DNA of 62,200 bases, counting the filler. It is 5 parts of 5 records of this genome, joined end to end, with 100 filler letters (N's around TTAATTAATTAA, not from the genome) between each part and the next. Parts side by side here need not be neighbours in the genome. Positions count along the whole stretch, not along the records: positions 30,603 to 42,601 come from SRR7504441_7503; 4 more parts are not named here. One strand, 5' to 3'. The notes under the pieces were generated by a model that was not told the origin of the DNA, did no database searches, and was given only the letters and a program-made list of their open reading frames with translations. The position numbers and the translations under genes were made by a program. Numbering within the stretch: the stretch's first letter is position 1; every line of letters starts with the position of its first letter. This document shows positions 16,278-56,725 of this stretch, in pieces.

Positions 16278-16453
16278 TTTTAACGGAAGCCTACAGTAAA
16301 AACAGCTGTAGTCCTCGGGTGACGGGGTGATCCTGGGTGAAATGAAAAAGATTCCGAGTTTCAGAAATCAGGCTCAAGTCCGTTACCCCGAGGGCCCAGG
16401 CCACGACGTCTAAAATCACAGCTATTATGAAGTCATTATTACAAGTAGTTATT

Positions 16454-19026: not shown

Positions 19027-19144
19027 GCTTGCGCGGCGGCTGTTCGGGATTAACGGAAGCCTCAGCTCGTGAAAGAATAAATAGGGCACTTTCATTGATT
19101 AAATCTGCACACGCGATGGCCAACCCGGACGAGCTCACTGAATA

Positions 19145-24843: not shown

Positions 24844-27219
24844 TCAATCAATCGTTGAGCAAAGCAACGCCGAGTTGTGGGCGTATTTATCGCGCACGCG
24901 AGTGAGATGCCGAGCTACGCTGCCTTGCGCCCAGGTGTGCGCCACAGGGTCCATCGCCTCGCCCAGCTGCTGCCACTCCGCCTCGAACGAGCCCAACTGG
25001 TCAGCAAACACTTGGTCAGACACCTTGACAGCGCTCTCGCCAGACATTTCATCCACCGAGCCGCCATCAGCGCTCTCACTGCGCGACTGCATCCCCAGCC
25101 GCATCGCAATCTCCCAGCGCCGCTTGTAATAGCTTCGGATCAGCCCGGACCACAGCCGCGCGGAGTAGTCGGAAATCTCTCCGTTAGGACCCCATCTAGT
25201 GACCAGGTTCCTCGCGTTGAACGCATACAGCGCGCGCTCTTCCTTTCCGTTGGCCAAAGCTAGCGCGTCCTGCAGCCATCGCTCGAACGAGAAGTGGTCG
25301 GTGCGGGAGAGCAGCGCGTCAAGGTCGTCGAGCAGCTCGAGGAACTCGCGAGAGGCCCGGCCAGTGTCAGGGTGCCCGTGCTCCAGGTGGCGGATGAACT
25401 TGAGGTAGATCCCCGCGGCCAAGTTGGCAAGCACCTGCCGGCTCAAGTCGATCAGATCGAGCTCAAGCGCGCTGCCCGGCCGCAGATCACTGGCCGCTCC
25501 AAGCAGCGCCAGCCAGGCCCGATGCAGATCGCAGTTGTTGTAGTGCAGCTTGGAAGACTGGAAGCCGTCATGCAGCACAGCCTCTCTGTTGAAGCTCGGC
25601 CGCTTCTCGATCACTGACTTGGTTGTCCCCCAAAGGCCGTTGCCCTGCGCCGGATCGAACACGCTATACACCGAGTTGGCCAGCGTCTGCCAGGCTTGCT
25701 GCAGCGAGCGCAACGTGGCCTGCTCGGCCGGACTGGCCAGCGGAAGCACAAACCCGTAGCGGGCAGCGACCCAGCCTTCTAGCCACTGGGTGAGATCGCG
25801 CGGAGCTGGGTTCCATGCATGGTCGAGCACCAACTCGTACACAATCGGGTTTTGGTTGATTGCCTCCATCGTGAGCCCGATGCCTGCCATCGTGGACCCC
25901 TTATCGTGCAGCGCTTTGTACGGCCGGGACATCAGCGTCGGCAGGTTACCCCTCAGCCCATTCTGGCCTCCAAAGTTGTGGAGCAAATTCCACACCCACG
26001 GGCTGTCGTGGTACTGCCTGGTGGTCTCATACGCCGGAGTAGCCTCGCTGATCAGATCTAGCACGAGCAGCCCCGACCTGGGCACTTTGCTCAAGTAAGC
26101 CTGGATCTGCTCGGGCTGCCAAAACTGCTGATGGAAGACAAACAGCCAGCCCTGCACCACCCAGACCGCCCGGGAGTCGGCCTCCTGCAGCGCCTTGATC
26201 TGGGCCTCGCCGCACAATGCTAGATACTCGGGTCTATTCGAACGCGGATCATTCTCGTTGAACTGATCGACAGCGTAGAAGTGGTCGGTGCCAAACATCT
26301 CGGCTTGTATACGGATGAACATTGAGCCTATCTCTCTGTACAGGTCGGAGCTTGGCTCAACGAAGCTAAGCCCTGAATACTCAGCAGGAAACCCGCTCCA
26401 TCGCGGCAGCCGGCTGTACTCGCCGTCCGGTCTGAGCTGCCTGAGCTCCTCGGGCACCTGTCCAGCGAGCCCTGGGAGCACAGGCCGCATCCCGAGCTCG
26501 CGCGCCCTCCGGAGCACACGGTGGGCCAGTTGTGTCGAGTGATCTATGTAGCCTCTAGGCAGCGGTCCGCCAAAGCCCTTCAAGTTGCCCATTCTGTGCC
26601 ACGCCAGGAAGCCAGGCCCAGTGAAGAAGCCGAGCACAGCCTTCTCGGACATCCCGAGCCGAGTGAATACCTGGAGCATAACGGCCTCCCTGTGGATGCT
26701 GATAAGCGGGCTGGTGACCCCGTGCAGCGCCATCCAGTCCAGCTCCCGCTCCCACCGCTCCCAGCCCCACCAGGCCATCGTGTAGCTGTGTGTGCAGTAG
26801 TTGAGATAGTACACCAGCGGCACCGCCCTCCGCTGCACCGGCTGGATGACCTCGCCGAAGTTCAACGGCATCCGCCGCTCTGCCACTCCCCAGCTGGTTG
26901 TGCACCCTCCCTGCGCCAGACACCACCTGTGCACAGCCGACGCCGCCGAGAGCGGTCCGTCGGCCGTTATCTGCAGCCGCCCCCCAGATGCTGTCAGCTG
27001 ATACTCGGGGGCAGCGGCGCCCGTGTACGTGACGCTCACCCGGTCGGCCGCTGCCGGCCCAAACACCCGGCTCATCAGCCCAGGGACCGGGTCGACGCCA
27101 GCAGCAGCCGGGGCGCTGAGCCACCGGGCCACGCACCACAGCGCGCTCAGCAGCGCCCCACAGAGCACGGCTGGGCTGCGCGCGTGCCGGCGCACCCACC
27201 GGAGCGGGCGGCGTTGCAT
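24844..27219 (-). CDS. NAGLU: Alpha-N-acetylglucosaminidase (GH89)
   Basis: YYLNYCTHSYTMAWW, WERELDWMALHG, FLAWHRMGNL, DQFNE, LHNFGG, GLTMEAINQNPIVYEL, NARNLVTRWGP. Confidence 0.95.
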   Translation of the reverse strand: MQRRPLRWVRRHARSPAVLCGALLSALWCVARWLSAPAAAGVDPVPGLMSRVFGPAAADRVSVTYTGAAAPEYQLTASGGRLQITADGPLSAASAVHRWCLAQGGCTTSWGVAERRMPLNFGEVIQPVQRRAVPLVYYLNYCTHSYTMAWWGWERWERELDWMALHGVTSPLISIHREAVMLQVFTRLGMSEKAVLGFFTGPGFLAWHRMGNLKGFGGPLPRGYIDHSTQLAHRVLRRARELGMRPVLPGLAGQVPEELRQLRPDGEYSRLPRWSGFPAEYSGLSFVEPSSDLYREIGSMFIRIQAEMFGTDHFYAVDQFNENDPRSNRPEYLALCGEAQIKALQEADSRAVWVVQGWLFVFHQQFWQPEQIQAYLSKVPRSGLLVLDLISEATPAYETTRQYHDSPWVWNLLHNFGGQNGLRGNLPTLMSRPYKALHDKGSTMAGIGLTMEAINQNPIVYELVLDHAWNPAPRDLTQWLEGWVAARYGFVLPLASPAEQATLRSLQQAWQTLANSVYSVFDPAQGNGLWGTTKSVIEKRPSFNREAVLHDGFQSSKLHYNNCDLHRAWLALLGAASDLRPGSALELDLIDLSRQVLANLAAGIYLKFIRHLEHGHPDTGRASREFLELLDDLDALLSRTDHFSFERWLQDALALANGKEERALYAFNARNLVTRWGPNGEISDYSARLWSGLIRSYYKRRWEIAMRLGMQSRSESADGGSVDEMSGESAVKVSDQVFADQLGSFEAEWQQLGEAMDPVAHTWAQGSVARHLTRVRDKYAHNSALLCSTID

Positions 27220-27362
27220 TCTGCCGTCGGGCACGCCGCTACGCTCGACCCAGCCCGGCCGTTGATCAACGGCTTCGGAGCTCCTTGCAGGCAAAGTTTG
27301 ATCAGCAAGGGCCAGTGCTCAGGCCTGTGCTGCACTGCCGGCTGGCGCCGGCGGGCAACGGC

Positions 27363-30602: not shown

Positions 30603-30720
30603 TAGTTGTCAATAAAGCGATTTGAGTCTCTGCGAGTGCGACAACGCATCAGAATCATTTAATGAACGATTTGTCACACACAACAGCCCCTCCTGCTACC
30701 GCCCGGTTTCCTACACCCAG

Positions 30721-31461
30721 CTACCTGCCACACCACTCCTCGGTCTCTTGAAGGTGCGTGAGGAAATCTTGGTCGGTCGCTGTAATGCGAAAGGTGGCCT
30801 TGCTGTTCCACGAGCTCGGCTGAATGCCGAGAGGCGCCCAATCCTCCGGTCTAGCGGCGTCGAGACATTCGTACTCCACACTGACCCGCTCGATGGCGGC
30901 GAGGAAGCCGGCAAAGCATTCTCGCGGGTAATCAAAGCGACTCACACATGTGGGAGGGCGTACCTCCAACTTAAAATTTGCCTGTACCCCCGCCCAGCTG
31001 GCGCCCTCGTCTGCGGCGGCGCTGCACACGGCGGCCACCGCGTCGATGAAGCGCTGCGCGTGCTCCACTGAGTCCAGGTAGAACTCCATTGTGGCTCCAT
31101 CGGCGCGCATGCTGGTTCCTGACCCGCAGCGCAGCTGCGCAAGCGCCGGGTCTGCCACGCCCACCGCCGCAAGCAGGCGTGCCTTCTCGGTCTGCAGGTG
31201 GTCCATGTCCTGGATATCGGCAAACCCATGCACGAGCACGTGCCCGTTCTGGCGCCACGCCTCGTGCTGGGTCAGCGGGCATGCCGCCTGGCGGTCGACA
31301 AACGCGCTATTGCTCCCCGCGAGCTGGTCCACCCACCAGACCTCGTCGTCCGTCCCTTCAAGCCCGAGCGTCTGAGACGAGTAGAAATCGATCACCGCCG
31401 TCGCCCCCTCGATGCTCTGCACCACAAACTTGTACAGGTCGGTGCCACCGCCGCGCCCCAT
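30721..31461 (-). CDS. Hypothetical protein
   Basis: ORF from ATG 31461 (MGRGGGTDLYKFVVQS) with coding-like composition. Confidence 0.55.
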   Translation of the reverse strand: MGRGGGTDLYKFVVQSIEGATAVIDFYSSQTLGLEGTDDEVWWVDQLAGSNSAFVDRQAACPLTQHEAWRQNGHVLVHGFADIQDMDHLQTEKARLLAAVGVADPALAQLRCGSGTSMRADGATMEFYLDSVEHAQRFIDAVAAVCSAAADEGASWAGVQANFKLEVRPPTCVSRFDYPRECFAGFLAAIERVSVEYECLDAARPEDWAPLGIQPSSWNSKATFRITATDQDFLTHLQETEEWCGR

Positions 31462-31567
31462 CGCCGAGGCGGCAGTAACGGCAGTAACGGCAACCAGCCG
31501 GACCTCTCTGGTGCTTGTGGGCTGGCGGGGGAGCTCGGGAGGCCGCTCCGGCGCGTTGCTGCTGCAG

Positions 31568-32631
31568 ACGCTCCCGCCGAGCCGGCCCAACTAACACCGC
31601 CGAGGCCCGCCGCTGACACTGCCGAGGCCCGCCGGCTGACTGGGCCTGGCCGGTGGCGATGCGAGGCGCTCTCGACCAGGCTTCCCGGCCGGTCGGTGTT
31701 CCGCGTGAGCACCCCGCAGGCCAGCCTGATCCTAAAGCTCTGCGACCCAGGGGCCAGCTGCCCTCTCGCCGGCGCGTACCCCCTCCGTGAGCTCGCCTTC
31801 TACGGCGCTGCTCCGCTGGACGCCGGGGGAAGCCTGGCCGCGCCTCGGTGCCGGCTCATCCAGCCGCTGCCCGACGGCCGCACGGCGCTCTGGCTGGACG
31901 AAGCGCGCGAAAGCGGCCCAGCTGGCAGCCTGGACCGACTCAGGCTCACTGCTGGCTGCCTCGGCAACGGGCTCCAGCAGCTGGCGCCAGACCAGCGGTG
32001 GCCGCCGGAGCTGACCCAGCAGCTGCCGAGGGATGACTTCCGCCGGCGAGCCACCGAGCCCGGCGTGATCACTCGGGCAGTGGCGGCAGGGCTAGCGTTC
32101 TCCTGCTGGCTGGTCGGGTGGGCCAGCCCGCGGTGGCGGGTGCTGGCAAGGTTTTGGTGGTCGGGGGCTCGGTCGCGGAGAGTGCCGGCAGTTGGCGCGA
32201 TGATGATGCACGGCGATTTGCAGCCGCGTAATGTGCTGCTGAGAGGTTCAGCACAGGGCGAGTGGACTGCCACACTTGTGGACTGGGAGGGCTGCGCGCC
32301 GATGCCGGCCGGGGCGGACCTTGGGCTGATGCTCTACTACCATTTCAGGCCGCAGCTCCGCATGGCCGGGTTGATGCGACACCCGGGAGCGTGGGCTGAT
32401 ACAACAGAGCAGCTACTGCGGGACACGGGCCGACCGGCCGAGTTGCGGCCCGGGTGCGTATGGTTGTTGCACGGGTTGATATGGAGGGAGATTGTGAGCG
32501 TGCTGCTCGAGGCACTGCTCGGGTCAGCGCGGCAGCCGATGGTGGGCGGGCTGTGGGTACGGTTGTGGTCGGCAATCGATTGGCTGGTGGCCGCGGCCGG
32601 TTTATTCTTGCAGCTACCCGATCCGGGCTGA
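31568..32631 (+). CDS. Aminoglycoside-phosphotransferase/choline-kinase-like protein; start codon not evident
   Basis: SVFRV...LILKL, RELAFY, ALWLDE, HGDLQPRNVLL, LVDWE, DLGLML. Confidence 0.75.
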
Positions 32632-33021
32632 ACTTAGTGACGTCGGTGAAATAGATGCTATATAGAATGATAGATACGCGGATACGAGTATATACTCGTA
32701 TGAAGCGAGATTGCCTGTAATTCGAATATAATTCGAATGGAAAATATATAACCACATCCTAACCACATCCGAAACTACGTGCTGTGCGGATGCTCTCATC
32801 AGGATTCCAAGACGAACGTTCGATATTGACTGAGAAGTACGAGAAGTATCAAGTATACTTGTAAATAGCCAAGCTACTTACTGTACAAATACTGTACAAA
32901 TACTGTGCAATACATGTAGATTGAATTGTAGATCTACTGTACTAGGCAGGAGTAGGCAGGAGTCGCAGGACTGTCCGGCGGAGCTCGGTCAGTCGGTTTG
33001 ACGATTGAAGAAGGTCAACAC

Positions 33022-33351
33022 TCAACGGCTGGTTTCATGGTGTAACCAGCACCGCTGGCTCTGAAGTAGCTGGCAAGCGATGGGCGGGTGTCGTTCATCG
33101 GCGCGTTCGACCTCGGCAGAGGACCACCCAGTCACAATCGTCGCGCCCAAATCGTCGGCCAGCCGCTCCCGCCGATCGAGCAGCCGGGCCAAGCCGTCGG
33201 CGCTCAATCTGATTAAGAACCCAGCCTCAGGCTCTGCGGGCGAGTGCGACAAGTGCCCAGCCGCGGGGGCCGCGCCGCCAGCCTGGGCAGATGTGATGGA
33301 CCGCACCCCACGGACAGCTGTCCGTTCTTCCGCAAACCGCGCGAGAAGCAT
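33022..33351 (-). CDS. Hypothetical protein
   Basis: GFLIRLSADGLARLLDRRERLADDLGATIV; ends at the AT-rich convergent spacer. Confidence 0.35.
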   Translation of the reverse strand: MLLARFAEERTAVRGVRSITSAQAGGAAPAAGHLSHSPAEPEAGFLIRLSADGLARLLDRRERLADDLGATIVTGWSSAEVERADERHPPIACQLLQSQRCWLHHETSR

Positions 33352-33416
33352 CCGGTGCCCTGCCCAGCGCCGCCGCCGGTCCTCACCCCGCGCAGGACGC
33401 TCAACGCCGAAAGCCG

Positions 33417-34038
33417 ATGGACATGGGCGCCGGAGGTGGGCCGCCGAGGGTGGGCCGCGAGCAGTGGGTGCGGCAGGTGGCAATTTTGTCCTCCGGTCGG
33501 CCCGGGTGGTGCGCCAACCTGGCGACGGCTCCTGCCTATTTCATTCAATGGCCTACGGGCTGGTGCGCCGGCTGTCTGCGGGGCTGGAGCCGGGGATAGG
33601 GCTCCCGTGGCGCGAGCACCCTGCGCCGGGACATTGCGGGTTTTGTGCAACAGAATCCGAATCTAAAAATTGCAGATACTCCGTGCGTCCACTGCAGGCC
33701 ATTGCAGGAACCACTGAGCGGCTGCGGCAGGCTGAGGGATTGGGTTCGCTGGGACTCGGGCTGCGGCGTGGGCACGTACGCCTCGCGGATGAAGTACAGC
33801 GGTAGCGCCCTGCTGGCCGGTGGTTCAGTGCAGGGCAGGCTGGGGAGGCGGGATTGAGATGGCTGCCTGTGCGAGGCTGCTGAACATCAATGTGCACGTG
33901 TATGAGAGGAGGCGGAGCGGGGGCGGGTACCAGCGTATCTCCTGCTTTGACGCGCCCGGCCGGGCCGCGCGCTCCGCGAAGACTGTGCATGTGCTATATT
34001 GTGGAGGTTGTCACTACGATGCGTTGATGCCTAACTAG
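33417..34038 (+). CDS. OTU-family deubiquitinase (about 4 tiny introns)
   Basis: Spliced read contains PGDGSCLFHS, LRRDIAGFV, WGGGIEM and HYDAL. Confidence 0.9.
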
Positions 34039-34203
34039 TCTCGTGTTCAAACTTTTAGAATCTAAGTGTACATAGATAGTGTACAAACCTAAATCGCGGG
34101 TGTCCGATATTTTGACATACCCTGTCTCAACCAGTCGTTTTAATGCCGAGATGATACTTTAAACTAATGTTAGTTACATATTTGTGGATTCCGGCAGGCA
34201 AAA

Positions 34204-34581
34204 TCATAGCGTTGCTCCAGCTAGGGTCTGTTTCAGTGTGATCTTCTTCATCATGTTCTTATGCAAATGTACAGGCCGCTCAACAGGCGCATAGCATCGC
34301 TTTGCCGGCCGGTAGACCTGGTTCTCCGGATCCGGGGCCACATGCCGGTAGGTTTTGCCTACAGGCAGGATCCAGTGCTGGCCATAACACTTGTCAGTGT
34401 AGGCCAACTTATGTGTGGTGCGATACTTGTCGCGCATCCCGTTATTAACTGCCGACGTGTTCATGTACTTCCGCCATTCTAGCACGTTCTGCTGCTTGAG
34501 TACTCGGTTTGGCCACAGAGAAGCGCTGCCCACCTCGTGTGAATCGGCTGGCGACCTGGAGGCCCCCGCCTGGTCTGGTCT
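34204..34581 (-). CDS. Hypothetical protein, terminal exon (no clear head)
   Basis: Open from acceptor ggtag| at 34582 to stop 34204; LKQQNVLEWRKYMNT..YRTTHKLAY. Confidence 0.45.
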   Translation of the reverse strand, partial: RPDQAGASRSPADSHEVGSASLWPNRVLKQQNVLEWRKYMNTSAVNNGMRDKYRTTHKLAYTDKCYGQHWILPVGKTYRHVAPDPENQVYRPAKRCYAPVERPVHLHKNMMKKITLKQTLAGATL

Positions 34582-34634
34582 CTACCTTTATGCACGCAGC
34601 TGCAGTAATGCAAGCCTGATTGACTGTTGGCCAG

Positions 34635-34949
34635 GTTGATATCATGAGCCGCTATGCTGCTCTCAAGGAAGAGACTCTGAATGATGCCTCGGATAGCATC
34701 TGGGACTCCAAGGACAATCTTTCGAAAGCACCCGATGACGCTGGGGATGTACCTGCACCCAACGATAAAAGCAAAGGCAAAGCAACACCAGAGAAAGCAG
34801 CTTCAACGGCTAAAAAGGCAGTTGTCAATGGACCGGAAGGCATGTGCATTCAATTACTTCGAGAGGCAGATGCTCAAGCTAAGATGCTCCGATCAGTAGC
34901 GATCATGATTGACCCGCACCAGGACAGCGCACTGCCACGGATTCGTTAG
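34635..34949 (+). CDS. Hypothetical protein, terminal exon (or small gene from ATG 34644)
   Basis: Branch-point-like ctgattgac plus ccag| acceptor; VDIMSRYAALKEE..QLLREADAQAKMLRS. Confidence 0.45.
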   Translation, partial: VDIMSRYAALKEETLNDASDSIWDSKDNLSKAPDDAGDVPAPNDKSKGKATPEKAASTAKKAVVNGPEGMCIQLLREADAQAKMLRSVAIMIDPHQDSALPRIR

Positions 34950-35173
34950 CATGTACGTAGCATGTACGACGGCCCATGGCCATATGATACTACCGTACTT
35001 AAGCCTAACCAGTTACCTAAGCCATCATTAGACCAACAAATTTTACACGACTGTATCAATTTGCGCATCGATGGACAAGCATGCAGAAATCAATACTTTT
35101 GTATTTCTATAAAACCCTAACAAACCATAAGATGTGCGTACATACATGGCACATACATGGCAACAACTCAACA

Positions 35174-35240
35174 TCCTTGATCTCATGCACTGGCCTTATC
35201 GAGTCTCGACTTTTGGCCTCAGTGCTGTCATCCTCAAGGA
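35174..35240 (-). promoter_or_regulatory. Eukaryotic type II SECIS element in the 3' UTR of the P1B-ATPase
   Basis: RNA: UCCUUGA-GG-AUGAC-AGCACUGAGGCC-AAAA-GUCGAGACUCGAU-AA-GGCCAGUGCA-UGAG-A-UCAAGGA. Perfect 7-bp helix I, AUGA/GA core, helix II, unpaired AAAA 13 nt after AUGA, apical mini-helix. Confidence 0.85.
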
Positions 35241-35295
35241 GTCATGGTACGCCGATTGGTCGCTGGAAGCCTGCAGCATGCGTAGCAGGCTGCAA

Positions 35296-38200
35296 TTACC
35301 CTCATCCGCCCTTTGGCTTCGGGGGCGCCACAACAGGCTTGTCCTCAGTCGGCACCTGGCATGTCCAAGGTTATGGGTCAGCTCTAGAGTCTAATATCAC
35401 CGTATCCGGACTCTTCTCTGCCACAGGCGCGCAATTCCGCTCGTGTGTACGCAGCCCTGCCGGTCGAGAGAAACTCCGCGGACACTCGGCGCATTTGTAT
35501 AGCTTGTCAGGCAACGGCACAGCGTTCCATCGAATCGCCTGATCCAGCTCAGCTCAATTCTGCTAACAAGCCAACACACCTCGTCGGCTAGCTCTAACTC
35601 TGGCTCTAGTTCTGGCTCTAATGTTGGGTCTGGCGGCTCTTCGGACGTGTCCTGCTTTTGCAAGCTCTGGCGCGGCCGGTTGTGGTTTGTTAGGTCGGTT
35701 TTGGCCATCTCGACCCGAAGCATTCTCATGCCGTTGAACACAACGCCGAGCAACCCAGTCACGTCGCCCACTACTGCCATCCAGAGCCGGACGTAACCAG
35801 ATAGGGCGGCGATTGTGAGCCCGCCCTTGATGGTGACTGCGATAAACATGTTCTGGTAGATCAGTCGTTTAGCAGTCCGCCCCACATCGATTACAAACGG
35901 CACTGACAGCAGATTGTCCTCTGCAATGACAATGTCAGCGGCCTGGACAGCCAGAGCTGTCCCTCCTGCACCCATCGCAAACCCCAGATCGGCTGTTGCT
36001 AGAGCTGGTCCATCGTTGATGCCGTCACCGAGCATCCCGACCTTCTCGGGCTCGCCATCTGAGTGCTTGTGGGTGCCCTGCTGGCACGCCTTGATATAAG
36101 CCAGCTTGTCGTTAGGCTTCTGTCGAGCTAGGTGTTGCCGGATCCCTACTCGCGCGCACACCTCCTGAGCGACGTCCTCCGAGTCTCCTGTGCACATTGT
36201 GCACTTCTGGTTGAGTCTGCGGAGCTCGTCCAAGGCTGTGCTGGCCTCAGCCCGCACTGTGTCCGCCAGCGACATGATGAGCGCTGGCTCGCCATCCACA
36301 CTGACCACGATATTGGTGGCACCAGGATGACTGTCGACATACCTCGCGACAGGCTGCCTCTTGGGGTTCAACGAGGAGAGCGCCTGGAGCATGTGCTGTG
36401 CCGAGCCGATCAGCACCTTGTATCCGTCCACCACGGCTTGCACCCCGACTCCGTCCACTACCTTGAAATTCTTCACCTCAGCCAACTTGACCATCTCATC
36501 ATCCTCGGCTGCAAACTCTCCAGCACAGCCAGTCACGTGATTCACCACGGCGGTGGCCAGAGGGTGGCTGGATCTGGCCTCAATAGCAGCCGCGTACTCG
36601 AACAGCTGTTTGCGCGGCAGTGGGCGCTTCATCGGGAGCACGATGTCGTCACACACCTCAAACTTGCCCTCTGTGATTGTTCCTGTCTTGTCAAACACCT
36701 GCCGACAGCTCGACACGGGCGCACATGCAGCCGGCTCACCAGTCGCTGCACTGCAGCAAGCTTTTCAACCGCCTCGCCCGATTTGATTAGCACCCCATGC
36801 TTGGCCCCGATTGCAATCGCCCCGATCACGGGCACAGGCGTCGACATCACAATCGCACAAGGGCACGCAGTGAGCAGGAGCACCAGCCCTCTGTGGAACC
36901 ACTCCTCGATGTTGTCCTTCCAGCCGAGGATCGCCGGGACGATTAGCACCAGCAGCACAGTAAACACGATCACTGACGGCGTGTACCACTGCGCGAATCT
37001 GTCGACAGACCGCTGGAACTTGCTCGGTTGGGCCTGTGCGTCCTCGACCATCTGAGTGAGCTCCGCCAGCATGGACTCGGTCGGGCCAGAAGTAGCCTCC
37101 ACTTCCAGGTAGCCATTCTGGACCACTGTCCCCCCCAGGACCGGATCGGCCTCCTGCTTCTGTATCGGGATCGATTCCCCAGTGATAGAAGACTCGTCCA
37201 CCGAGCCTGAGCCGGTGACCACGATCCCGTCCACCGCGATCATGTCCCCCGCCCGGCAGGCCACCACGTCGCCGATCCGGAGCCTTGCCAGCTCGAGTGT
37301 CGTACCGTTTGATGTTTCCTGCCCGGAGGCCTGATCGTCGTGCCTCCCACGCGGCCCCCGAGAGACGAGCACGGCTTCTTGCGATGGTGGCGAGCCGAAC
37401 ACCTGGACCGCCCGGCGGAGCTGTTCCATGGCTAGATGCTGCAGGTGATTGGCCAGTGAGAAGAGAGCCACCACCGCAGCCGCCTCTATCCAGCCTTGCT
37501 GGGCCATCGCTCCAACAGCAGCCAACACCATAAGGAAGTCTATACCGACCATCGAGTACCTGAGCCCCATGAATGCCTTCCGGAGCAACGGCCATATCCC
37601 GATCCCGATCGAGGCCACCGCCACCCATTTCCATCCTGAGGCACCCTCGGTGGCTGCAGAGCCCATGGCGGCAACGCCGAACAGCCCGATCACCACGACC
37701 AGGTGCAGGATCACAAGCCGCTCTACAGTCCGGTCCTCGTCCTCGTCCTCCTGCTTGGTGCTCCTTGACTGTATGGAAGCGCCAAGCTTGTGCGAGTTGA
37801 GCTTTTCTAGCATCTCCGGAGCCGTCGGCTGGTCGCAGTGATGCTTAATGATCGCCACTCGCCCGACTGTGTTCACCCGGACTTCTACTACCCCCGGCTC
37901 CGGCTCGAGCAGCTTGTGGATCAGCCGGGCTTCCAGGTCGCAGCAGATGTTTTGGACCCGCAGCCGCGTGGTGATGATCTTGCCCGGCTGGCCACCGGCT
38001 CGCACCCAGCCCGCCCGGCCCGGCACACCTCCTCAGGGCCGACCGGCAGCGCCAGCTCGTCCGCGCCCTTTGACCCCGGGCTCAGCGGCAGGACCTGATA
38101 CTGGGCCTCCGAGCGGACCTGATCCCCGATCATAACGTCGTCTGTCCCCGCGGGTCGGGCCAGCCGGCCAGCAGCGCACTGTAGCTCGACTTTCGAGACC

Positions 38201-38410
38201 GGCGGCGCTCGGGCGCCAGGTTGAACCATCCGCCGCTGCGAGCCGGTGGCTCGGACTCGGCCGCGCCTGGGTGCGGTCAGCTCGGCCCGCGGGGGGCGGG
38301 GGACCATATCCAGCGGAGGGCTGTTTGGCGGTCAGCAGTGATTCGAGCTCGACCTTTGAGCCGCGCGGGGTCCCGGTAATCCCAGTGTATCCCTTCTTTT
38401 TCTTCGGCAT
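35296..38410 (-). CDS. P1B-type heavy-metal ATPase (HMA2/4-like, Zn/Cd class) with C2HC zinc finger and predicted C-terminal selenocysteine (GGUG*)
   Basis: N-terminal HMA domain (VQNICCDLE), DESSITGES, TACPCAIVMSTP, FDKTGT, SSHPLA, TGD, GDGINDGPAL. Last exons 35538-35401 (YKCAECPRSFSRPAGLRTHERNC) and 35355-35296 (VPTEDKPVVAPPKPKGG-TGA-G-TAA). Confidence 0.93.
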
Positions 38411-38539
38411 CCCCGGCCTCCGGCGCCGCCCCGAAGCCTCAGAAGCCCAGTGAGCGTACGCTCAGGCGCTCGTGCCAAGCCTTCTCGGGACGAGCTCGTG
38501 CATCCCTTGCACCTGAGCAAAATACCGTTGCGAGTGCAA

Positions 38540-39639
38540 ATGTCGCAGCACTTCAGCGGCGGTGCAAGCCAGCCGGCGGAGCTGGAGGTCGAGGCGGCGT
38601 TCGTCCCGACCAAGAAGCAGCACGCCACCGCGGTCTCCGAGCGCTGGAGCGTGCACGGCCGCGGCTGGGGCCCCAACCCGCACACGCCTAACGACGGCAA
38701 CCAGAACTTCCAGGGGGTGACCCGCCGGCCCGCTGCGCTGGTGCCAGCTGCGGGCAGGTGGGCCAGGATACCTGGGGCCGGGCGGCCGAGCGGGCGTACC
38801 GGCGCGAGGACGCCGAGCAGTGGCGGCGGCACCAGGACCAGCAGTATCGAGACGCGCTCAACAACGCGCGCGACCAGGACACGAACGAGCTCTGCGAGAA
38901 AGAGGCCGAGCGGGCCGTCCGAACCTTCTTCGACTCGTCCAAGGAGGTGCCCGGCCGGCCGTCGGGCGGGGCTGAGCCTAGGCGCAGGTCACTCGACGGG
39001 CCAATTACAAGGCGCAGTACGTGAGGGAGCTAGCCTGGCGGGAGGAGCAGCAGCAGCTGCACGTGGCGAAGGAGACCGACCTGGAGGTGGCCGACCGCAG
39101 CCCCGGGCGGCTGTCGAACTGGGCGGCAGCAACGGCTGGCGGGAGCCCACCTAGCGGAGGAGGAGAAGCGGCAGTGGCTGGAGGCTCTGCAGGACGCTGC
39201 AGCGCACAGGGCGAGCTACGCGAGGGAGCTGGCCGCTCGTGATGCCGAGCTGCGGCGGCAAGTCGAGGCGCAGGCCAGCGCGCACCTGAACGAGGTGGGC
39301 CGGCCGGTGGGCCACGGATCGAGCTGAGACAGGTGATCGAGGCGGAGGAAAAGAACAAGGCGCGCCGCGCAGCCGATAGGGAACAGGAACAACTGCAAAA
39401 GTTCAAGGACGATATCAACGCCCGGCGGGGGGCCGAGCTGCTCGAGCGCGACGTGCGTGGCCCGGGGTGCGGCCGTGCTGAGCCTGTGGGGGCAGCGGCA
39501 CAGGACGTATGTGGATGGATTTAGCTATTCGTCGCACAGACACGCGCTGCCTGAGCCGGACAAGCACAACCCTTGCACCAAGCCGCGAAACCTGGTCTAT
39601 CCAATCCGCGGCTGGCGGCACAAGTCGCACACGAACTGA
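38540..39639 (+). CDS. Hypothetical coiled-coil protein, multi-exon
   Basis: Exons joined by GT-AG introns of about 41 nt; R/E/Q-rich helices. Confidence 0.6.
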
Positions 39640-39710
39640 TTTTGAGTGCAATTGGGAGCTGCAATCAGGCGCAAGCGAAAGAATTTAATTCACGTATGAC
39701 TAAATAAAAT

Positions 39711-40614
39711 TTATTTGATGATTATTTGATCGCTGATTGCCGTGTCGTCGCACACTGGGCGGCTGTGGCTGTGTGCTCGTCGGTACGCCTTCATCATCCT
39801 CTCATCGGCCTCCGCCCGCTCGTCTGCCTGGGCTGCCTTATCGATCGGCTTCCTCACGCCCAACACAATCCTGTTCTGCGGGCTGATCTTGGGATCGATG
39901 CACTTGAGCAGCCCCCGATAGCCGGCCACCGCCTCGATGCGGCCGAGCAGCCGGCAGTCCATAACCACCCCGAGAGCCACCTACCCCGCCCTGCAGCAGC
40001 GCCCGACCGGCCCTTACCCCCAGGTCCTTGGCCGCCTCCTTGGCCGCCCCTACCCTGTCTTTGTGGCAGCAGGGCATGACCGCGAACGGCGCCCCTCGGG
40101 CCAGACAGAGGTCCACGATCTGGTCAGACAGATGCTGGCAGGCATGTACAGCCACTGCCGCCGCGTCCGGAGCTCGGTCCATCAAGCCAGGCAGCGCCTC
40201 CTGCAGGCCTTGCCGGCAGTACTCCACGGGGGTCGGCTGGGGCAGCTGCGGGGCCCAGGCCCGGAGCATGGTGCTGAAGCTCTCCGGCTGGTTTGGGTCC
40301 AGACAAACCACCCTGCTGGCCCTCCTAAAGGCCAGCAGCAGCAACCCGACCAGACCTGCGGGCCGGTGGATCGGCCGCGCCTGGGCGGAGCCACCGTGGC
40401 TGGCACAGACGTCCACGCACAGGCTCCGGGCGGCCCGGCCCGGGAAGAGCGGCTTGTCAATCCGGCGGACGAACTGGAGAGCCTCGTTCAGCTCCTTCAG
40501 GCTTGGCTTCGGGCGAGGCGCCGAACGCCAGAGCAAGTACAGCTTGCGCTCCACCGACTCACCACCCTCGGCTACGGCCCCGACCGCACTCACCGGCTCC
40601 GGTGCAGCGGCCAT
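39711..40614 (-). CDS. SAM-dependent methyltransferase-like protein
   Basis: CVDVCASHG/LVGLLL, VAVHACQHLSD, VMPCCH, ISPQNRIVLG. Confidence 0.75.
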
Positions 40615-40722
40615 CAGCGCGCGCCGTCCCCTGGAGCCTGCGCCTGCTGCAGCTGGGTGCCGCCGGCTGAAAAAAAAAAAATCCTGGCAGCGCCGGCCGG
40701 CTCGGCACCGCGCGCAAGAGGC

Positions 40723-42225
40723 ATGGCTGCTACGGACCCGGGGGAGCAGCCGCGGCCCAAGAAGAAGCGGAGCCGGCGGAAGCAGCTGCTCGGCTGGGCT
40801 GTGGTGCTGCCGGTTGGGGTGGCGGTGCTGACCATCGTCTGGCCGGCGATCGAGCCGCTGCTCTCCGGGACGGCCGGCGAGGGCGGGGCTGGCTGTCCCA
40901 TGATGAGCCGGCCGGCCAACCAGAGCAGCCCCGGGGGCAAGTGCCCGCTCGGGCTCAGCTCTGGGCCGCCGACGGAGCCGGAGGAGGAGCCGGCGCTGGA
41001 CCCTGGGCGGGTGTACACGGAGGACGAGCTGGAGGCGTTCGATGGCAGCGACCCAGGCCGGCCGCTGCTGCTGGCCTACCGCCGGGTGGTGTACGACGTG
41101 TCGAGCGCCCGGCAGGTTTACGGCCCGGGGATGGCGTACAGGTGCCAACTGGCTGGCCGGGGCTGAACCGGAGGACAGTAAGTTTGCGGGCCGAGCTTGC
41201 ACAAGGGGGGTGGCGCTGCCGTCGCTTGAAGAGGCGGACGTGTCTGACGACACCTCGGACTTTGGTCCCGAGCAACTCGGGTCGGTACGGCAATGGGAGG
41301 ATTTCTACCGCAACAAGTACCCGCAGGTGCTGGGTCTGGCCATGCTCAATCCGGATCTCAGGCAGGTGGGCGCTCTCAAGCTCGACACCGACCACCTCGG
41401 ACGCGTGGCCAGGCGGGCCGAGGCGGCCGCTGCTGAGCGGGTGGCCTCTCGCTCAATCCCGCCAGCCTGACTCGTGCGGGCAGCGGGCAGCTGAGCATGC
41501 GAGGGAGCAGGCAGCGGCCAAAGCGAAGCTGTCTTCCGGGCGGCTCTTCACTGCAGCGGAGCTTGCTCAGTTTGACGGGGCGGTCGCCGGCCAGCCAGTG
41601 TACCTGTCCATCGCGGGGCACGTGCTGGACGTTTCGGAGAGCCGTAATCTGTTCGGAAAGGGCCGGCCGCGTGGGTGCTGGGCCGGGCGGGATGCCACAA
41701 TTGCGATGGCCCAGAAGTCCTGCAGCCCCGCCCATCTAGCCCGAGTGATGGCCGACGCCACCCCTACCGAGAGCGCCCAGCTGGACGAAACGCTCACGTT
41801 TTTCCTTAGCAAGTACCCAAAGGTGGGTTCACTGGAGCTGGCTGCGGTGCCGGCTCCGATCCCGGAGGTTGTCGGTATTCGGGCGGAGTTGGGACAAGGA
41901 CAGAGCGTCGTGGTCTCGTGGCTGCCGCTCAACACGGTGCGCTCAGGCCGCACTGGCACTGATGGCCGCGCAGGACTCGGGCGCAGAGCAGTATCTGGTG
42001 CTTGGGGCGGTGGGAGACCAGCCAGCGATACCACTCAGCCAGCCGCTCGAGGCCCGGCACTTCCGGTCCAAACGGGCCGCCCACACGGTGCAACTGCCGG
42101 AGCTGCGCGCGCACTGCTCCGGCCCGACTGGGCTCTGGCGGTTCTATGTGGTCGCTGTCAAGGGCGGGGTGAAAGGTCCGAGCGGCCAGCCGAGCGCGGT
42201 GCTACAAATCGAGTGTGCGAACTGA
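40723..42225 (+). CDS. Membrane-anchored protein with two cytochrome b5-like heme/steroid-binding (MAPR) domains
   Basis: Transmembrane helix; YTEDELEAFDG..VYDVS..FAGRACT..WEDFYRNKYP; FTAAELAQFDG..VLDVS..WAGRDAT..KYPKVG. Confidence 0.85.
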
Positions 42226-42324
42226 AGGCGCCGGCGAGACTGGAGAGCTCTTGTTTTAGTATGTGTAGCTTTAGCGTGTTGCGGTCCTATACCCGCATGC
42301 TACCCGTATGCGTGTTTTCATGCT

Positions 42325-42601
42325 TTATATGGTAGAATTTTCATGATATATGTGTCGGCCCAGGTCCTCCATCTCTGCCTCAGTGACAAGCCCCTCCAAC
42401 CTCGTGCGGATCCTTGTATCAAGATGGCCCAGCATCAGGGCCATCACTCCCACCAGTACGTACTAGATCTACCGCTTCCAACGGAAGAACTACGGAAGAA
42501 CCAAGCCTGCCGTTCGCAAATCAGGTGCTGGTACAACGCCGCGCGCTGGTTGTTGCAACAAATGGTGTCCGCCGAACTGCGCGAGGCTCTGGTCCACAAC
42601 G
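42325..42601 (-). CDS. Possible 3' end of a gene truncated by the contig edge
   Basis: Minus-strand read LDTRIRTRLEGLVTEAEMEDLGRHIYHENSTI*, convergent with the MAPR gene. Confidence 0.3.
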
Positions 42602-48432: not shown

Positions 48433-48532
48433 NNNNNNNNNNNNNNNNNNNNNNNNNNNNNNNNNNNNNNNNNNNNTTAATTAATTAANNNNNNNNNNNN
48501 NNNNNNNNNNNNNNNNNNNNNNNNNNNNNNNN
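48433..48532. other. Artificial contig linker
   Basis: N44-TTAATTAATTAA-N44. Confidence 0.98.
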
Positions 48533-51585: not shown

Positions 51586-51597
51586 GTCTGATTGCAG

Positions 51598-53422
51598 GCC
51601 ACCAATTCGCAGCGGTTCTATCAGGGACACGATAACGACATTCTGTGCATGGCGATCAATCGAGCTGACGGTACCACAATTGCCACAGGACAGTGGACGG
51701 GCAACAAGTCTCAAGGGCAGACCTACGACCCCAAAATTATGGTCTGGAACTCAGAGAACTGTGAGACACTCTACGAGCTTACTGGGGAGCACCAGCGGGG
51801 TATCTCATGCCTGGCATTCTCGCCATCGGGCAATAAGCTGGTTTCTGTCGGAATGGACGACAACAATAGCGTTGTTATGTGGGACTGGAAGCGCCAGAAG
51901 GCGGTTGGCCCCGCAATGAAGGGCGGGCAGAACAAGCTGTTGATGGTCGCGTTTGATGGGAGCAATGACAATTCCTTCCTTACTGTTGGGGCCAAGACCA
52001 GCCAATTCTGGACTGCTTCGGCTGGTGGTAAGTTGTCAAAGAAGAGTGCAGCATTTGGCAAAAAGTTCAAGCAGCAAACTCAACTGGTGTGTGCTTCACA
52101 CAGGAACGGATTCCTGTCTGGAGCGTACCAGGGTCAGCTGTATGGTTGGACTGGCAATGGAGCCTCTTCCATGACACCTGCACACGATGGACCCATCTAT
52201 GCCATGTGCACATCAGGTGAGCTTGTTGTGACTGGGGGCAAAGATGGCAAGGTATCAGTCCGAGACATTTCGCTCAAGCCACTGGAGGAATTCAACTTGG
52301 GCCAGAACATCCGCTCTGTAGATGTGCACAACGACAGCATTCTTGTCGGCACATATGAGGGCAACATTTACGAAGTTGACATGAAATCAAAGAAGACCGA
52401 GGTGATCATGATGGGCCATGGTGGCATGGTTGAGCCAAACAACGCCTATGCGGGAGAGACCTGGGGGCTCGACGTGCACCCTGACGGCCACCACTATGCC
52501 ACAGTTGGCGATGATCGTGTTGTTCGAGTGTTCAACATTGAGTCACACCGGTGTGTTGGGAGCTTTGAAAATCTCGAACATCGCGCCCGCGCATGCTCGT
52601 GGCACAAGGATGGTGGCATGTTGGCCGTGGCTCTGAAGACTGGCACGATCGTGATTCTACAATGGAGCAGCGGGACTCTGTCGGAGCTCAAGTCATTTAA
52701 GAAGCGCGACTTCAAGAAGCTCAGCCAATTCCCGGAGCAGGGAGGGATTGATGCGATTCGATTCTCTCCAGATGGCTCAATGCTCGCCACTGGATCTCAC
52801 TCTGAAGGTATTGATGATGCCTTTACAATGCATAAACCTAGGGTGGGGGTCATTGTGACTCTGATTTAGTCTTGTTTGTGTCTCAGGTAAGGGGGGTTCT
52901 GGCGGGAAAGTTGATGTTTTCAGTACTGAAGGGTGGACCTTCCTTGGCGAATGCAAGGGCCACACCTCTTTTGTGCGCAACTTGGACTGGACTTCAGATT
53001 CTCAGCACATTAAATCAACAGATGCCAACCCTGAGTTGTTATTCTGGGACGCCAAGAACACTTCACAGCTGAAGAGCGGCGCATCTACCCTGAAGGACGC
53101 TGACTGGTACACCTTCTCTACTGAAGTTGGATGGCCAGTTCAAGGCGTCTATCGAAAGCTTCCAAACCACACAAAGCAGATGGATGGATCTGATGTCAAC
53201 ATGTGCGATGTGAACCCAGATAAGACGCTGCTTGTTGTCGGTGATGACTTCTCAAATGTCACCCTCTACAACTATCCTTGTACAAACAAGAAGGACGGCG
53301 CCTCATACTTTGGAGGACACTCTTCCTTTGTGATGAACGTCAAGTTTTCCAAAGATGGTAGCCGTGTGTTTTCTGTAGGCGGGCACGATCACACAGTGTG
53401 TCAATGGAAACTCATCAATTGA
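51598..53422 (+). CDS. EML/EMAP-like tandem WD40 (TAPE) protein lacking its HELP-motif N-terminus
   Basis: QRFYQGHDNDILCMAI, GETWGLDVHP, CKGHTSFVRNLDWT, GWPVQGVY, VGDDFSNVTLYNYPC, GHSSFVMNVKF, GGHDHTVCQW. Confidence 0.9.
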
Positions 53423-53824: not shown

Positions 53825-55782
53825 CTAGAGGATAAAGGCACAGCCATCAGCTCGCGGATCGGAACCTGCTAGCAAAATACGCTTGGGACCTGCAGCAGTT
53901 TGATGCACTTGCTGAACAATGATTTGGCCACGACCAAACAGGCTTCGGTCATAGCCAGTCACTGGCCCCTTCACTGTGTGGCCCTTGAGCCGGAGCTGCT
54001 CAATGACCTCATCCGAGATGCCTTCCTCGATGGCCACCTGCGACAGCTTCATAACTATGGACCAGCAGCCGCTTGGCACACCTGTGACTCTACGGCCTCG
54101 TTCATGACATGTGCCCCACCTCCCTGTGAGATGCAGAATCGAGGTGTGTCCAGCGCCTCTTGTGGGTCCATCCCAAAGTCGCGCATGTTCCGAATCACCT
54201 GCACTGCACTCAGCTGGCGCCCGGACCGGCGGCGGCCTGCAGGTGGCCTTGCGGCTGCATGAACCCGCCCATCACGCCAAACACCGAGTGCAGCTCGCCA
54301 CTCCCCGCCCAGGTGCTCAGTCCCGGGATGATGGTGTGGTAAGGCCGCTTTGCCCCGGCCACCGCGTTCGGGTGCCCAGGCTTGAGCGAGAAGTTATGGC
54401 CTGCCGCCGGCCTGAGCCGTGCCCGGGCGGCCAGTTTGCCTCGGTTCTGTAGCGTGAATCCTGCACCCTTTGGCACGATCCCAGTCCCAAACCCCATGTA
54501 GTTGGAGTTGATCATCGAGCACCCGTTCCCGTCTCGGTCTATCGCCACAAACTGAACCCACCGCTCAGCCCGGACTGCGCCCGATCACCTGGACGGTGTC
54601 GCAGCCACTCGGCGGCTGCCCAGCCACAACGTCGGCCTGAGCTGCCTCGGGCTGGATCTGGGCCTTGCGGGCGGCCAAGTACTCCGCCGACAGCAGCCCG
54701 GCCGTTGGCACGTCCACCAGCTGCTCGTCTGCTATGTATGCCCGTGCGTCCGCAAAGCTCAGCCGCATCGCTTCAACCAGCCCATGCAGATAGAGTGCAG
54801 AGTTGTGGCTCTCGCCCGGATACAGCCCTTCGGAGATCTTGAGCGCGAGCAAGGCGGCCAGCCCCTGGGTGGGCGGGGGCACCTCGTACACCCGCAGCTG
54901 GTTGTATTCGACGCTGATCGGCTCCCGGAACTCTGAGCTCCGGTGCGCCTCCAGGTCGGCCTCGGTGAGCACCCCGCCACTCTGCTGCACCACCTGCGCT
55001 ATGCCAGCCGCCAGCTCGCCGGTGTAGAACCCCTTGTGCGCCCCATCGGCAGCTACCCGCCGCATGGTGGCCGCCAGCCCCGGTCGGGTCATCACTTCGC
55101 CAGCGGCCGGGGCCCGCCACCCGCCTGCTCCACCCTCAGCCGGCCCCACGGACAGCGCACCCGGCGCGCTCGGGTCTTGCACCAGCAGCTCGGTGCCGTT
55201 GGCGGCCCCGGCCAGCAGCTGGGCGGCCTTCTCCCAGGCGTGCGCGGCCACCGGCTCCACCACGAACCCTTGCTCGGCCAGCTCGATCGCCGGGGCCAGC
55301 ACGTCGGCCAGGCTCAGCTTGCCCGACCCGTGCCGGCGCACCGCGTCCTCCCAAGCCATCGGGGCCCCAGGCACGGTCACGCACAGCGCCGACAGCGGGT
55401 CGAGCGGCGCGGCATCCACCCCGAATCCAGCCTGGGCCAACCGGTCGAGCGAGAGCCCGCTGGGGCTCCGGCCGTTCCCGAGCATCGCCTCGACCGCCCC
55501 GGTGTCCGCCTTGAAGAACAGCCCGAAGCAGTCGCCCCCAATCCCGGTGCTGCACGGCTCGGTCACGCCGAGCGCGGCAGCGATCGCCACTGCGGCGTCG
55601 GTCGCGTTGCCGCCGGCGGCCAAGATCTTGATCCCAGCCGCGGTCGCCGCCGGCTGGGAGGAGGCGCAGCCGCCGCCCGAGCCCATCACAGCTGAGCGGC
55701 GGCTGGAGAACGGCAGGCGCTTGGCAGCCCATCCCCCGCCCCGCGCGCCGCCTGACGGATCCTGTGTGAACGTGCGCTTCAT
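53825..55782 (-). CDS. Gamma-glutamyltransferase
   Basis: [29 protein letters not shown] (Thr nucleophile), [37 protein letters not shown]. Confidence 0.95.
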
Positions 55783-55929
55783 AGGTGCCGGACTGCCGGT
55801 GTGCCGTGCGTTCAGGGTTTGAGCTGGGTACCAGCCAAGCCAAGCCAGCCTTCTTGCGCGGGGGACGCCGGGGACTTCGGAGGGCATACTGCGTGTTCGC
55901 TCAGTCTTCTCGGAGCCGGTCCTTCGGCC

Positions 55930-56725
55930 ATGCGCTCCATGCTCGGGCTGCTCGGGCCGCTCGGGCTGATGGTCACCGCGGGCGCGGCGCGCATAAACCA
56001 GGACTTGATAATTAGGGGGACGCTGCCCGATACCCGCAATTGCGTCCAGGCGACTGATCCGCCGAACGCCCGACTTACCCTGACCCATTGCGTGCAGGCA
56101 CGACTCAGCCGAAGCATGTCAGCCGTCAGCTCTCCCTTCCACGGAGGGGCGTTCCTGTCTGCGATCCCGTTCTCGGCCGACAGGGTCTGCTTATCTGTAG
56201 CAGTCGAAGCTCCAGGGACCAAGCTTTCGTACTGCCCACGAGCTGCCCTGTGCATTGTACCATCGGTCTTTGCGAAGACTCCCCTGGTGCGATTGGATCT
56301 CCGCGTCTTCTTGCAAGTGCCAGACTGCACCAGACTCGCCGATGCTGAGCAGCTCGATTACGCAACAAGCTGCAGCTACGTGGCCTACTTATCTGCTGTC
56401 ATTTGTCTTCTTGTGGTGGCAGCTAAGTTCCGAAGCTCCAGGCCTGGCAGCAGGGAGCGTCAGCCTCGCATTTATAAGTGTCAGCATCACCGTGGCAGCA
56501 GCTCAAAGGGAAACCTTGGCTACAATCTAAGGAGCGACTGTCCAGAATGCGCAGCGGCGCTGATCAGCAGTGCTTGAATGGTGTGCATTGGCCCTCGAGG
56601 GAGCTAGCTATTACGCCAGTACTGTAGCTGACAAATCAACATGTACAGCTCCCGACCCGTCTTCAACGATCCCAGCAGAGCGTTTCTGCAATGGACCGAA
56701 TGGCCTGAATTTCACTTGGGTTTGA
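55930..56725 (+). CDS. Hypothetical signal-peptide, single-TM protein; 3' exon structure uncertain
   Basis: MRSMLGLLGPLGLMVTAGAA signal; TM YVAYLSAVICLLVVAA. Confidence 0.5.

Follow-up and report, generated by a model that had tools for sequence, protein, structure and literature searches.

A marine protist heavy-metal P1B-ATPase gene with a candidate penultimate selenocysteine codon and a SECIS-like hairpin in its 3' untranslated region

The locus described here lies on the minus strand of a 62,200-nt stretch of DNA (five records of one genome joined end to end with filler letters between them; hereafter the window), in the part from record SRR7504441_7503 (positions 30,603 to 42,601). It holds a single gene for a heavy-metal-transporting P-type ATPase, for which a five-exon model with four tiny introns was rebuilt by coordinates. 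The spliced open reading frame (ORF) reaches a TGA that is followed by one glycine codon and a TAA, and the 3' untranslated region (UTR) contains a hairpin that resembles a selenocysteine insertion sequence (SECIS) element; the TGA is probably read as selenocysteine (Sec). The features are as follows, where P0121 and P0122 are related proteins and X2, X4 and X10 are metatranscriptome runs with RNA contigs, all described below.

38029..38133, minus strand: exon 1, provisional (from the ATG at 38133-38131), which continues in the frame of exon 2 once the 41-nt intron is taken out
37988..38028, minus strand: intron 1, 41 nt, GTG..CAG, read from the sequence; its removal restores collinearity with the P0122 stretch '..TTRLRVQNICC..'
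36740..37987, minus strand: exon 2, with the N-terminal metal-binding-type domain, the NICCDLE Cys-Cys motif, transmembrane helices, the actuator domain and CPC
36699..36739, minus strand: intron 2, 41 nt, GTG..CAG, read from the sequence; once it is removed, ..AVQRL runs directly into VFDKTGTITEG, as it does in P0122 and P0121
35580..36698, minus strand: exon 3, with the DKTGT site, the nucleotide-binding and P domains, the last transmembrane helices and an acidic linker
35539..35579, minus strand: intron 3, 41 nt, GTG..CAG, phase 0, placed by the X4 RNA end and by collinearity with P0122 and P0121
35401..35538, minus strand: exon 4, with a single C2H2-type (C2HC) zinc finger, YKCAECPRSFSRPAGLRTHERNC, matched by Pfam zf-C2H2
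35356..35400, minus strand: intron 4, 45 nt, GTG..CAG, with an in-frame TAA inside, placed by the spliced X2 contig
35296..35355, minus strand: coding part of exon 5, VPTEDKPVVAPPKPKGG, then TGA, G and TAA, read from the sequence and the X2, X4 and X10 contigs
35302..35304, minus strand: TGA, proposed Sec codon in the penultimate position, with GGG TAA next; relatives end at the homologous Gly-Gly
35116..35295, minus strand: 3' UTR, minimum extent in RNA contigs (X2 to 35164; X10 at 35116-35317)
35170..35243, minus strand: SECIS-like hairpin of type II shape, from the minimum-energy and centroid folds and our own pattern scan

All introns begin with GTG and end with CAG, and their near-uniform sizes (41, 41, 41 and 45 nt) point to a lineage in which intron size is tightly constrained. 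The spliced ORF comprises 887 residues followed by TGA (35304-35302), GGG and TAA (35298-35296), with no other stops; with Sec read, the product becomes a multi-pass pump of 889 codons. After removal of introns 3 and 4 the frame ends ...PPKPK-GGC-GGA-TGA-GGG-TAA, read on the minus strand exactly as claimed in the original prediction and at the coordinates given there. The two introns that had been proposed with it (35579-35539, 41 nt, and 35400-35356, 45 nt, with an in-frame stop) have GT..AG borders in the sequence and are consistent with the RNA. An in-frame UGA with a continued frame is present, and the extension is of only one codon, too short to show coding potential past the UGA. It had also been said that the ORF track missed the tail, and this is so: the unspliced ORF at 35397-36716 runs into intron 3 and stops there. 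The start at ATG 38410, in contrast, was not upheld, its frame differing from that of the ATPase exon; 19 GT..AG options could link that ATG to the ATPase frame, with support for none. The N-terminal 37 residues of the present model gave no alignment with P0122. In the GC-rich 5' region (38140-38400, minus strand), two similar stretches (..GSKVELESLL.. and ..VSKVELQCAA..) lie in different frames, several ATGs are possible as starts, and a further 5' intron is possible.

RNA evidence was drawn from four marine or seawater metatranscriptome runs belonging to four studies, each with contigs that match the stretch at 99% identity or more. A contig of run X2 (325 nt) joins 35352 to 35398 with 45 nt skipped, the cut being ambiguous by 3 nt and the shorter side measuring 136 nt, and so is derived from a spliced transcript; from there it runs on without a gap through TGA, GGG, TAA and the entire hairpin to 35164. 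A contig of run X4 ends at 35540 with 8 extra letters that equal the plus strand at 35582-35589 and fit the joint 35538|35580, which supports removal of intron 3, a short loose end of this kind being weak on its own. A contig of run X10, from a poly(A) library, spans 35116-35317, and the coding part of exon 5 is covered by contigs of X2, X4 and X10 without further joints. Splicing of both 3' introns in RNA (intron 4 in X2, intron 3 at the short end of X4) and a hairpin lying within the 3' UTR had both been anticipated and were both seen, and these contigs gave no sign of polyadenylation before the hairpin or of other splicing. At 35247, just 5' of the hairpin, one X2 contig has A where the window has G (plus strand), which leaves the pairing unaffected and looks like strain variation. 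The contigs of the four runs have no cover at 35585-36056 or 36307-38500 and are uninformative for introns 1 and 2, which lie uncovered.

Judged from its sequence, the encoded protein is a eukaryotic (marine protist) heavy-metal export ATPase of the P1B-2 type (Zn/Cd class), in agreement with the class first suggested for it. The CPC, DKTGT, HP and GDGINDGPALA motifs are all present; Pfam E1-E2_ATPase matched exon 2 at 150 bits and Pfam Hydrolase matched exon 3. With the exons scanned separately, TIGR01525 scored 226 bits in exon 2 and 258 bits in exon 3, and the Cd/Zn subfamily model TIGR01512 scored 195 and 192 bits, so that both models matched both halves and the rough sums of the two exon scores exceed the cut-offs (346.25 and 313.5, respectively). 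The relative P0122 scored 486.7 for TIGR01525 and 394.8 for TIGR01512 against the same cut-offs, and the copper subfamily model TIGR01511 scored below the Zn/Cd models. The N-terminal Cys-Cys unit gave a weak Pfam HMA match only (13.2 bits versus a cut-off of 24.8), and in the AlphaFold2 model of P0122 residues 48-120 form a beta-alpha-beta-beta-alpha-beta unit at the N-terminus. Exons 1-4 are without TGA, and the N-terminal metal motif (NICC) is written in Cys codons. Among the 120 matches listed, the closest named relatives were HMA2/HMA3-like pumps of corals and anemones, at about 37-42% identity.

Among the protein matches listed, the tail of the window protein was shared by P0121/P0001, P0122 and P0137 only. 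P0121 and P0001 are two isoforms of one EukProt Trinity gene and are transcript-derived, P0122 is a protein of 899 residues on a 2948-nt Logan contig, and P0137 is one of 737 residues on a 9417-nt JGI contig. The window protein was 61% identical to P0122 over 881 columns, in an alignment that runs through the final Gly-Gly, 61% identical to P0121 with alignment up to the last residue, and 43% identical to P0137 in the ATPase core; exon 3 taken separately was 63-71% identical to P0122 and P0001. All four have the same order of parts, namely pump, acidic linker, zinc finger, Lys/Pro-rich stretch, Gly-Gly and terminator. The possibility that the last two small exons are foreign to the ATPase, whether as a small gene of their own or through a mis-join, and that the pump ends earlier is scarcely credible: the unspliced ORF with its own stop in intron 3 and the absence of the tail from the ORF track would suit it, but P0121 and the single-contig P0122 hold pump, acidic linker, finger and Lys-rich Gly-Gly end on one ORF, and the RNA contigs connect exon 4 with its neighbours on both sides, exons 3 and 5.

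The predicted ORFs of the relatives end in KKKKKKGG, KKKSGG (P0122) and ARKKGG, and the window protein ends in PKPKGG before its TGA. Gly-Gly is invariant at the end in 4/4 members, the lysines shift, and the preceding tail has diverged. Shared ORF ends directly after Gly-Gly fit the gene-caller product expected of a GG-UGA-G-stop arrangement. The Gly-Gly ends of the relatives provide new support for Sec, independent of the features by which the original prediction had been selected.

The zinc finger encoded in exon 4 had been overlooked in that prediction. It matched Pfam zf-C2H2 at 25.7 bits (cut-off 25.2), as did the finger of P0122 at 25.2 bits; P0121 scored 17.6 bits, below the cut-off, and P0137 has the pattern without a Pfam match. 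The pattern C..C...F.R..GL..H is kept in all four family members, and in the window protein Cys serves as the last ligand, which makes the finger a C2HC one, within the pattern C-x2-4-C-x12-H-x3-5-H/C. In the AlphaFold2 model of P0122 (mean predicted local distance difference test (pLDDT) score 83, predicted template modelling score 0.74) the pump core is modelled with confidence; pLDDT falls below 50 at residues 814-850 and 880-899, which are disordered, and the finger at 851-879 folds as beta-beta-alpha with pLDDT of about 80 between these two disordered stretches. The cytosolic tail is probably ordered as a disordered acidic linker, a C2H2-type finger, a disordered Pro/Lys-rich stretch and Gly-Gly-Sec-Gly. 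Since residues 880-899 of the P0122 model are disordered, the Sec would sit, as described for SELENOK, at the end of a flexible, basic, disordered cytosolic arm beside a zinc site.

Searches beyond this small clade were made with whole proteins, with the tail and with patterns. Among 390 proteins examined none ended in GGCG and 6 ended in GG, four of which (P0001, P0121, P0122 and P0137) carry the finger; the other two, P0119 and P0363, have unrelated endings. Finger and Gly-Gly tail together occurred in none of the best 150 of 96,469 representatives outside the clade. A tail profile search returned 23 matches, made up of the 3 known clade ATPases and 20 proteins with C2H2 zinc-finger Pfam domains. 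A metagenome scan with the patterns DKTGT[IL]TE and ARQKP... yielded 80 bacterial-type ATPase loci (30-41% identity) and none of the clade, the scan being swamped by bacterial ATPases because of the DKTGT pattern; tail-only scans of genome contigs and viral contigs gave short chance matches or nothing. Close eukaryotic pumps outside the clade (P0242-P0265) were seen in many cases to end in short hydrophobic sequences of the ..S-Y-V, ..E-E-V or ..L-P-V type, which suggests that the wider family has a conserved C-terminal signal of another kind.

The RNA fold of 35250-35165 had a free energy of -27.1 kcal/mol (z = -3.04), and 1/200 shuffles was as stable. Pairing of 35243-35234 with 35180-35170 gives helix I (7 + 3 bp), above which an internal loop sets GGAUGA opposite AGA, followed by helix II of 11 bp with small bulges. 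The AUGA lies at 35231-35228, an unpaired AAAA at 35214-35211 starts 13 nt after it, and the apex consists of a 5-bp mini-stem, a 3-nt loop and AA, a type II outline. The 3' GA can be placed at 35184-35183 (register 1) or 35182-35181 (register 2). The gap from TGA to AUGA is 70 nt, and the reported minimum spacing between UGA and SECIS is roughly 50-110 nt. A hairpin with 'all type II SECIS hallmarks' had been announced downstream of the TGA; the hairpin is real, and its shape and spacing are right for a SECIS, but the wording was too strong, the core being off consensus.

How often such a structure arises by chance was estimated with a pattern of our own (AUGA, 10-14 nt, AA, GA; helix II of at least 8 bp with at most 2 mismatches and 1 bulge; helix I of at least 6 bp). 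It matched twice in 124.4 kb, and 40 dinucleotide shuffles gave a mean of 0.5 matches, with 2 matches in 6/40. The count over the whole window is unremarkable; it is the position that matters, a chance match being expected at roughly 0.001 for every 200 nt on a single strand. The second match (15238-15187, minus strand) falls in the coding part of a GH32 glycosidase gene and was taken as chance; the exons of that gene are at about 14577-15710 and 15738-16367. A TGA followed by GGN and a stop was found for 4/1862 TGA triplets in the window (both strands), and the TGA of the pump gene is the only one of those 4 that also has two GGN codons before it.

Several points weigh against Sec. The core consensus, as set out in PMC3753652, is UGAN/KGAW; the hairpin offers UGAC/UGAG in register 1 or UGAC/AGAU in register 2, each one position off, and the pairs next to the core are irregular: register 1 has two mismatches there and register 2 a bulged A, features that, according to the same paper, lower the SECISearch3 grade. 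A check with the Rfam SECIS model, which the original prediction had named as one way of testing it, gave no match at E <= 10 in 34900-35500 (601 nt) or 35160-35255 (96 nt), and no SECIS reached the gathering score anywhere in the window. The negative is real, yet not decisive, because non-metazoan SECIS elements are the hardest to predict (as stated in the part of PMC3753652 that deals with prediction). The SECIS call itself is not established: it rests on hand inspection and on a pattern that was composed after the candidate had been seen. The TGA context and the hairpin were moreover the features by which the locus had been selected in the first place, and the p-values overstate the case. 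The ends of the relatives are known from their protein sequences alone, in which the terminator codon cannot be read. No homologue with a Cys form (..GGCG) was found in three protein searches, so that the classic Sec/Cys pairing is missing, and neither a tRNA gene in the window nor a known selenoprotein family among its 51 long ORFs (Pfam) was found. Rfam matches to mir-254, sR3, snoU85 and PK-repZ were weak and were taken as chance; that to mir-254 (35044-35103, minus strand; 22.7 bits versus 70, E 0.035) falls in an AT-richer stretch past the 3' UTR and is most likely a chance match.

In the main rival, an unlikely one in our estimate, the TGA is a genuine stop, the pump ends in ..PKPKGG, the basic Gly-Gly end has a role of its own and the hairpin is due to chance or unrelated. 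Such a role could be that of a dilysine-type sorting signal on the cytosolic tail, for which the rule is KKxx or KxKxx at the C-terminus, and three of the four tails fit it: KKGG in P0121 and P0137, and KPKGG in the window protein. The addition of Sec-Gly would shift the dilysine pattern of the tail out of register. A true stop would also agree with the missing Rfam match and the off-consensus core, with the missing Cys form, with Sec machinery that is unverified, and with TGA being a common terminator here. Against it, the KKSGG of P0122 breaks the dilysine spacing yet keeps Gly-Gly, and KKxx signals should fix the lysines and not the two residues after them; in addition, the TGA-Gly-stop arrangement is rare, AUGA, AAAA and GA stand at SECIS distances in the minimum-energy fold, and the hairpin is kept in the spliced mRNA.

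The genetic code was considered in the same way. Of 18 long ORFs in the window, 10 close with TGA, and in-frame TGA is absent from the large exons; the standard genetic code is in use. A variant code with UGA as a standard amino acid, or SECIS-independent read-through, would likewise give a two-residue extension, one without Sec; nothing specific speaks for either, and both are very improbable, as the long exons of the gene and the other Pfam-supported ORFs of the window hold no in-frame TGA and TGA serves so often as a terminator. A count of ORFs with TGA read through gave 204 in the window. Neighbours at 4305-8648, 16457-19098, 24847-27318, 51592-53419 and 54568-56118 are ordinary eukaryotic genes of no known selenoprotein family, the types seen being a BEACH/WD40 protein, two XendoU-type ORFs, an alpha-N-acetylglucosaminidase, an EML-type double beta-propeller and a gamma-glutamyltranspeptidase. 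An N run (assembly gap) begins at about 48489, after an ABC-transporter ORF that ends at 48481.

With a probability of roughly 0.78, we infer that the UGA at 35304-35302 is read as selenocysteine and that the gene encodes a real Sec-terminated pump. Sec is favoured because the spliced mRNA carries the hairpin, because the Gly-Gly ends are invariant and, at a discount, because of the features noted in the original prediction; it is tempered by the Rfam negative, the missing Cys form and the unverified Sec machinery. Insertion of Sec at the UGA would be directed by the SECIS-like kink-turn hairpin that lies some 60-70 nt further down, in the 3' UTR. As the UGA lies in the last exon, two codons before the TAA, a failed insertion would cost only two residues. 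It is usually in this way that C-terminal Sec tails arise, and the gene may give rise both to a Sec form and to one that lacks the last two residues.

Once inserted, the selenolate on its flexible basic arm could act, with the neighbouring finger, as a high-affinity ligand for capture, hand-off or sensing of soft metals of the Zn/Cd type, a tentative role that we hold at slightly worse than even odds if Sec is present. On the same premise, a selenenylsulfide redox switch with the cysteines of the finger is a second and more doubtful option. A further scheme, in which the pump founds a new selenoprotein family whose terminal selenolate handles metal and in which selenium supply sets the fate of the pump through the dilysine signal, is quite improbable. 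There, stopping at UGA would leave a free dilysine-type end (KKGG/KPKGG) that retains the pump in the early secretory pathway, and insertion of Sec would bury the signal beneath Sec-Gly and arm the tail; if it held, the site and the manner of toxic soft-metal export from the cell would depend on selenium status.

No eukaryotic selenoprotein that is a P-type ATPase or any other transporter came up in literature searches, and the original prediction likewise knew of no eukaryotic P-type ATPase with a C-terminal Sec. In the main text of a survey of algal selenoproteomes (137 species, 42 families; PMC7539508) the words ATPase, heavy metal, transporter and zinc have 0 occurrences. A family so small, from a poorly sampled lineage, would escape homology-based selenoproteome surveys, which need Cys forms. 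If Sec is confirmed, the pump would be the first membrane transporter with selenium to be described from eukaryotes, whose known selenoproteins are almost all redox enzymes or small endoplasmic reticulum (ER) proteins. Selenium use would then be tied directly to Zn/Cd-type metal handling in marine protists, and the pump would offer a natural test case in which selenolate binds metal instead of serving redox chemistry. Gene callers would once again be seen to shorten selenoproteins, three public relatives ending at Gly-Gly.

Plant HMA2/HMA4 have an 'ICC..E' motif and Cys/His-rich tails. Together with cnidarian HMA2-like pumps they share with the window protein the class (TIGR01512), the N-terminal Cys-Cys and a metal-binding-type cytosolic C-terminal extension; unlike the plant proteins, the window pump has no Cys-pair or His-run tail, and has instead a single C2H2 finger and a probable Sec. 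The endings GGUG and GGUGR are those of SELENOS/SELENOK-type tails, and GCUG is the end of thioredoxin reductase. As in SELENOS and SELENOK, which are also membrane proteins, the proposed Sec stands at or next to the penultimate position after Gly-Gly, in a disordered cytosolic tail of Gly/Pro/basic character, and would be served by a 3' UTR SECIS, here a SECIS-like candidate. SELENOS and SELENOK are small single-pass ER proteins and thioredoxin reductase is a soluble flavoenzyme, whereas the window protein is an eight-helix metal pump with a finger before the tail; it is not a member of the SELENOK/SELENOS family, and its tail alone resembles theirs. In SELENOS the Sec is residue 188 of 189 and is paired with Cys174, according to part of PMC3628699, and in SELENOK it lies within a disordered segment, as described in part of 10.1101/2021.05.15.444318.

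A P-type metal ATPase with selenocysteine, which the window pump is proposed to be, has a precedent in bacteria. A Sec-containing cation-transporting ATPase (pfam00122) is entered in the Global Ocean Sampling selenoproteome with 1 Sec form versus 882 Cys forms, in the portion of PMC2398784 that gives these counts, and a bacterial Sec P-type metal ATPase is also tabulated in PMC1976440. In the bacterial protein Sec takes the place of the first Cys in the N-terminal CxxC (giving UxxC) and is served by a bacterial in-frame SECIS, whereas the window pump keeps its N-terminal Cys-Cys and would carry Sec at the C-terminus in GGUG, with a eukaryote-type hairpin in the 3' UTR. Sec P-type metal ATPases were already known in bacteria and C-terminal GGUG tails in eukaryotes; their combination in one protein is probably new.

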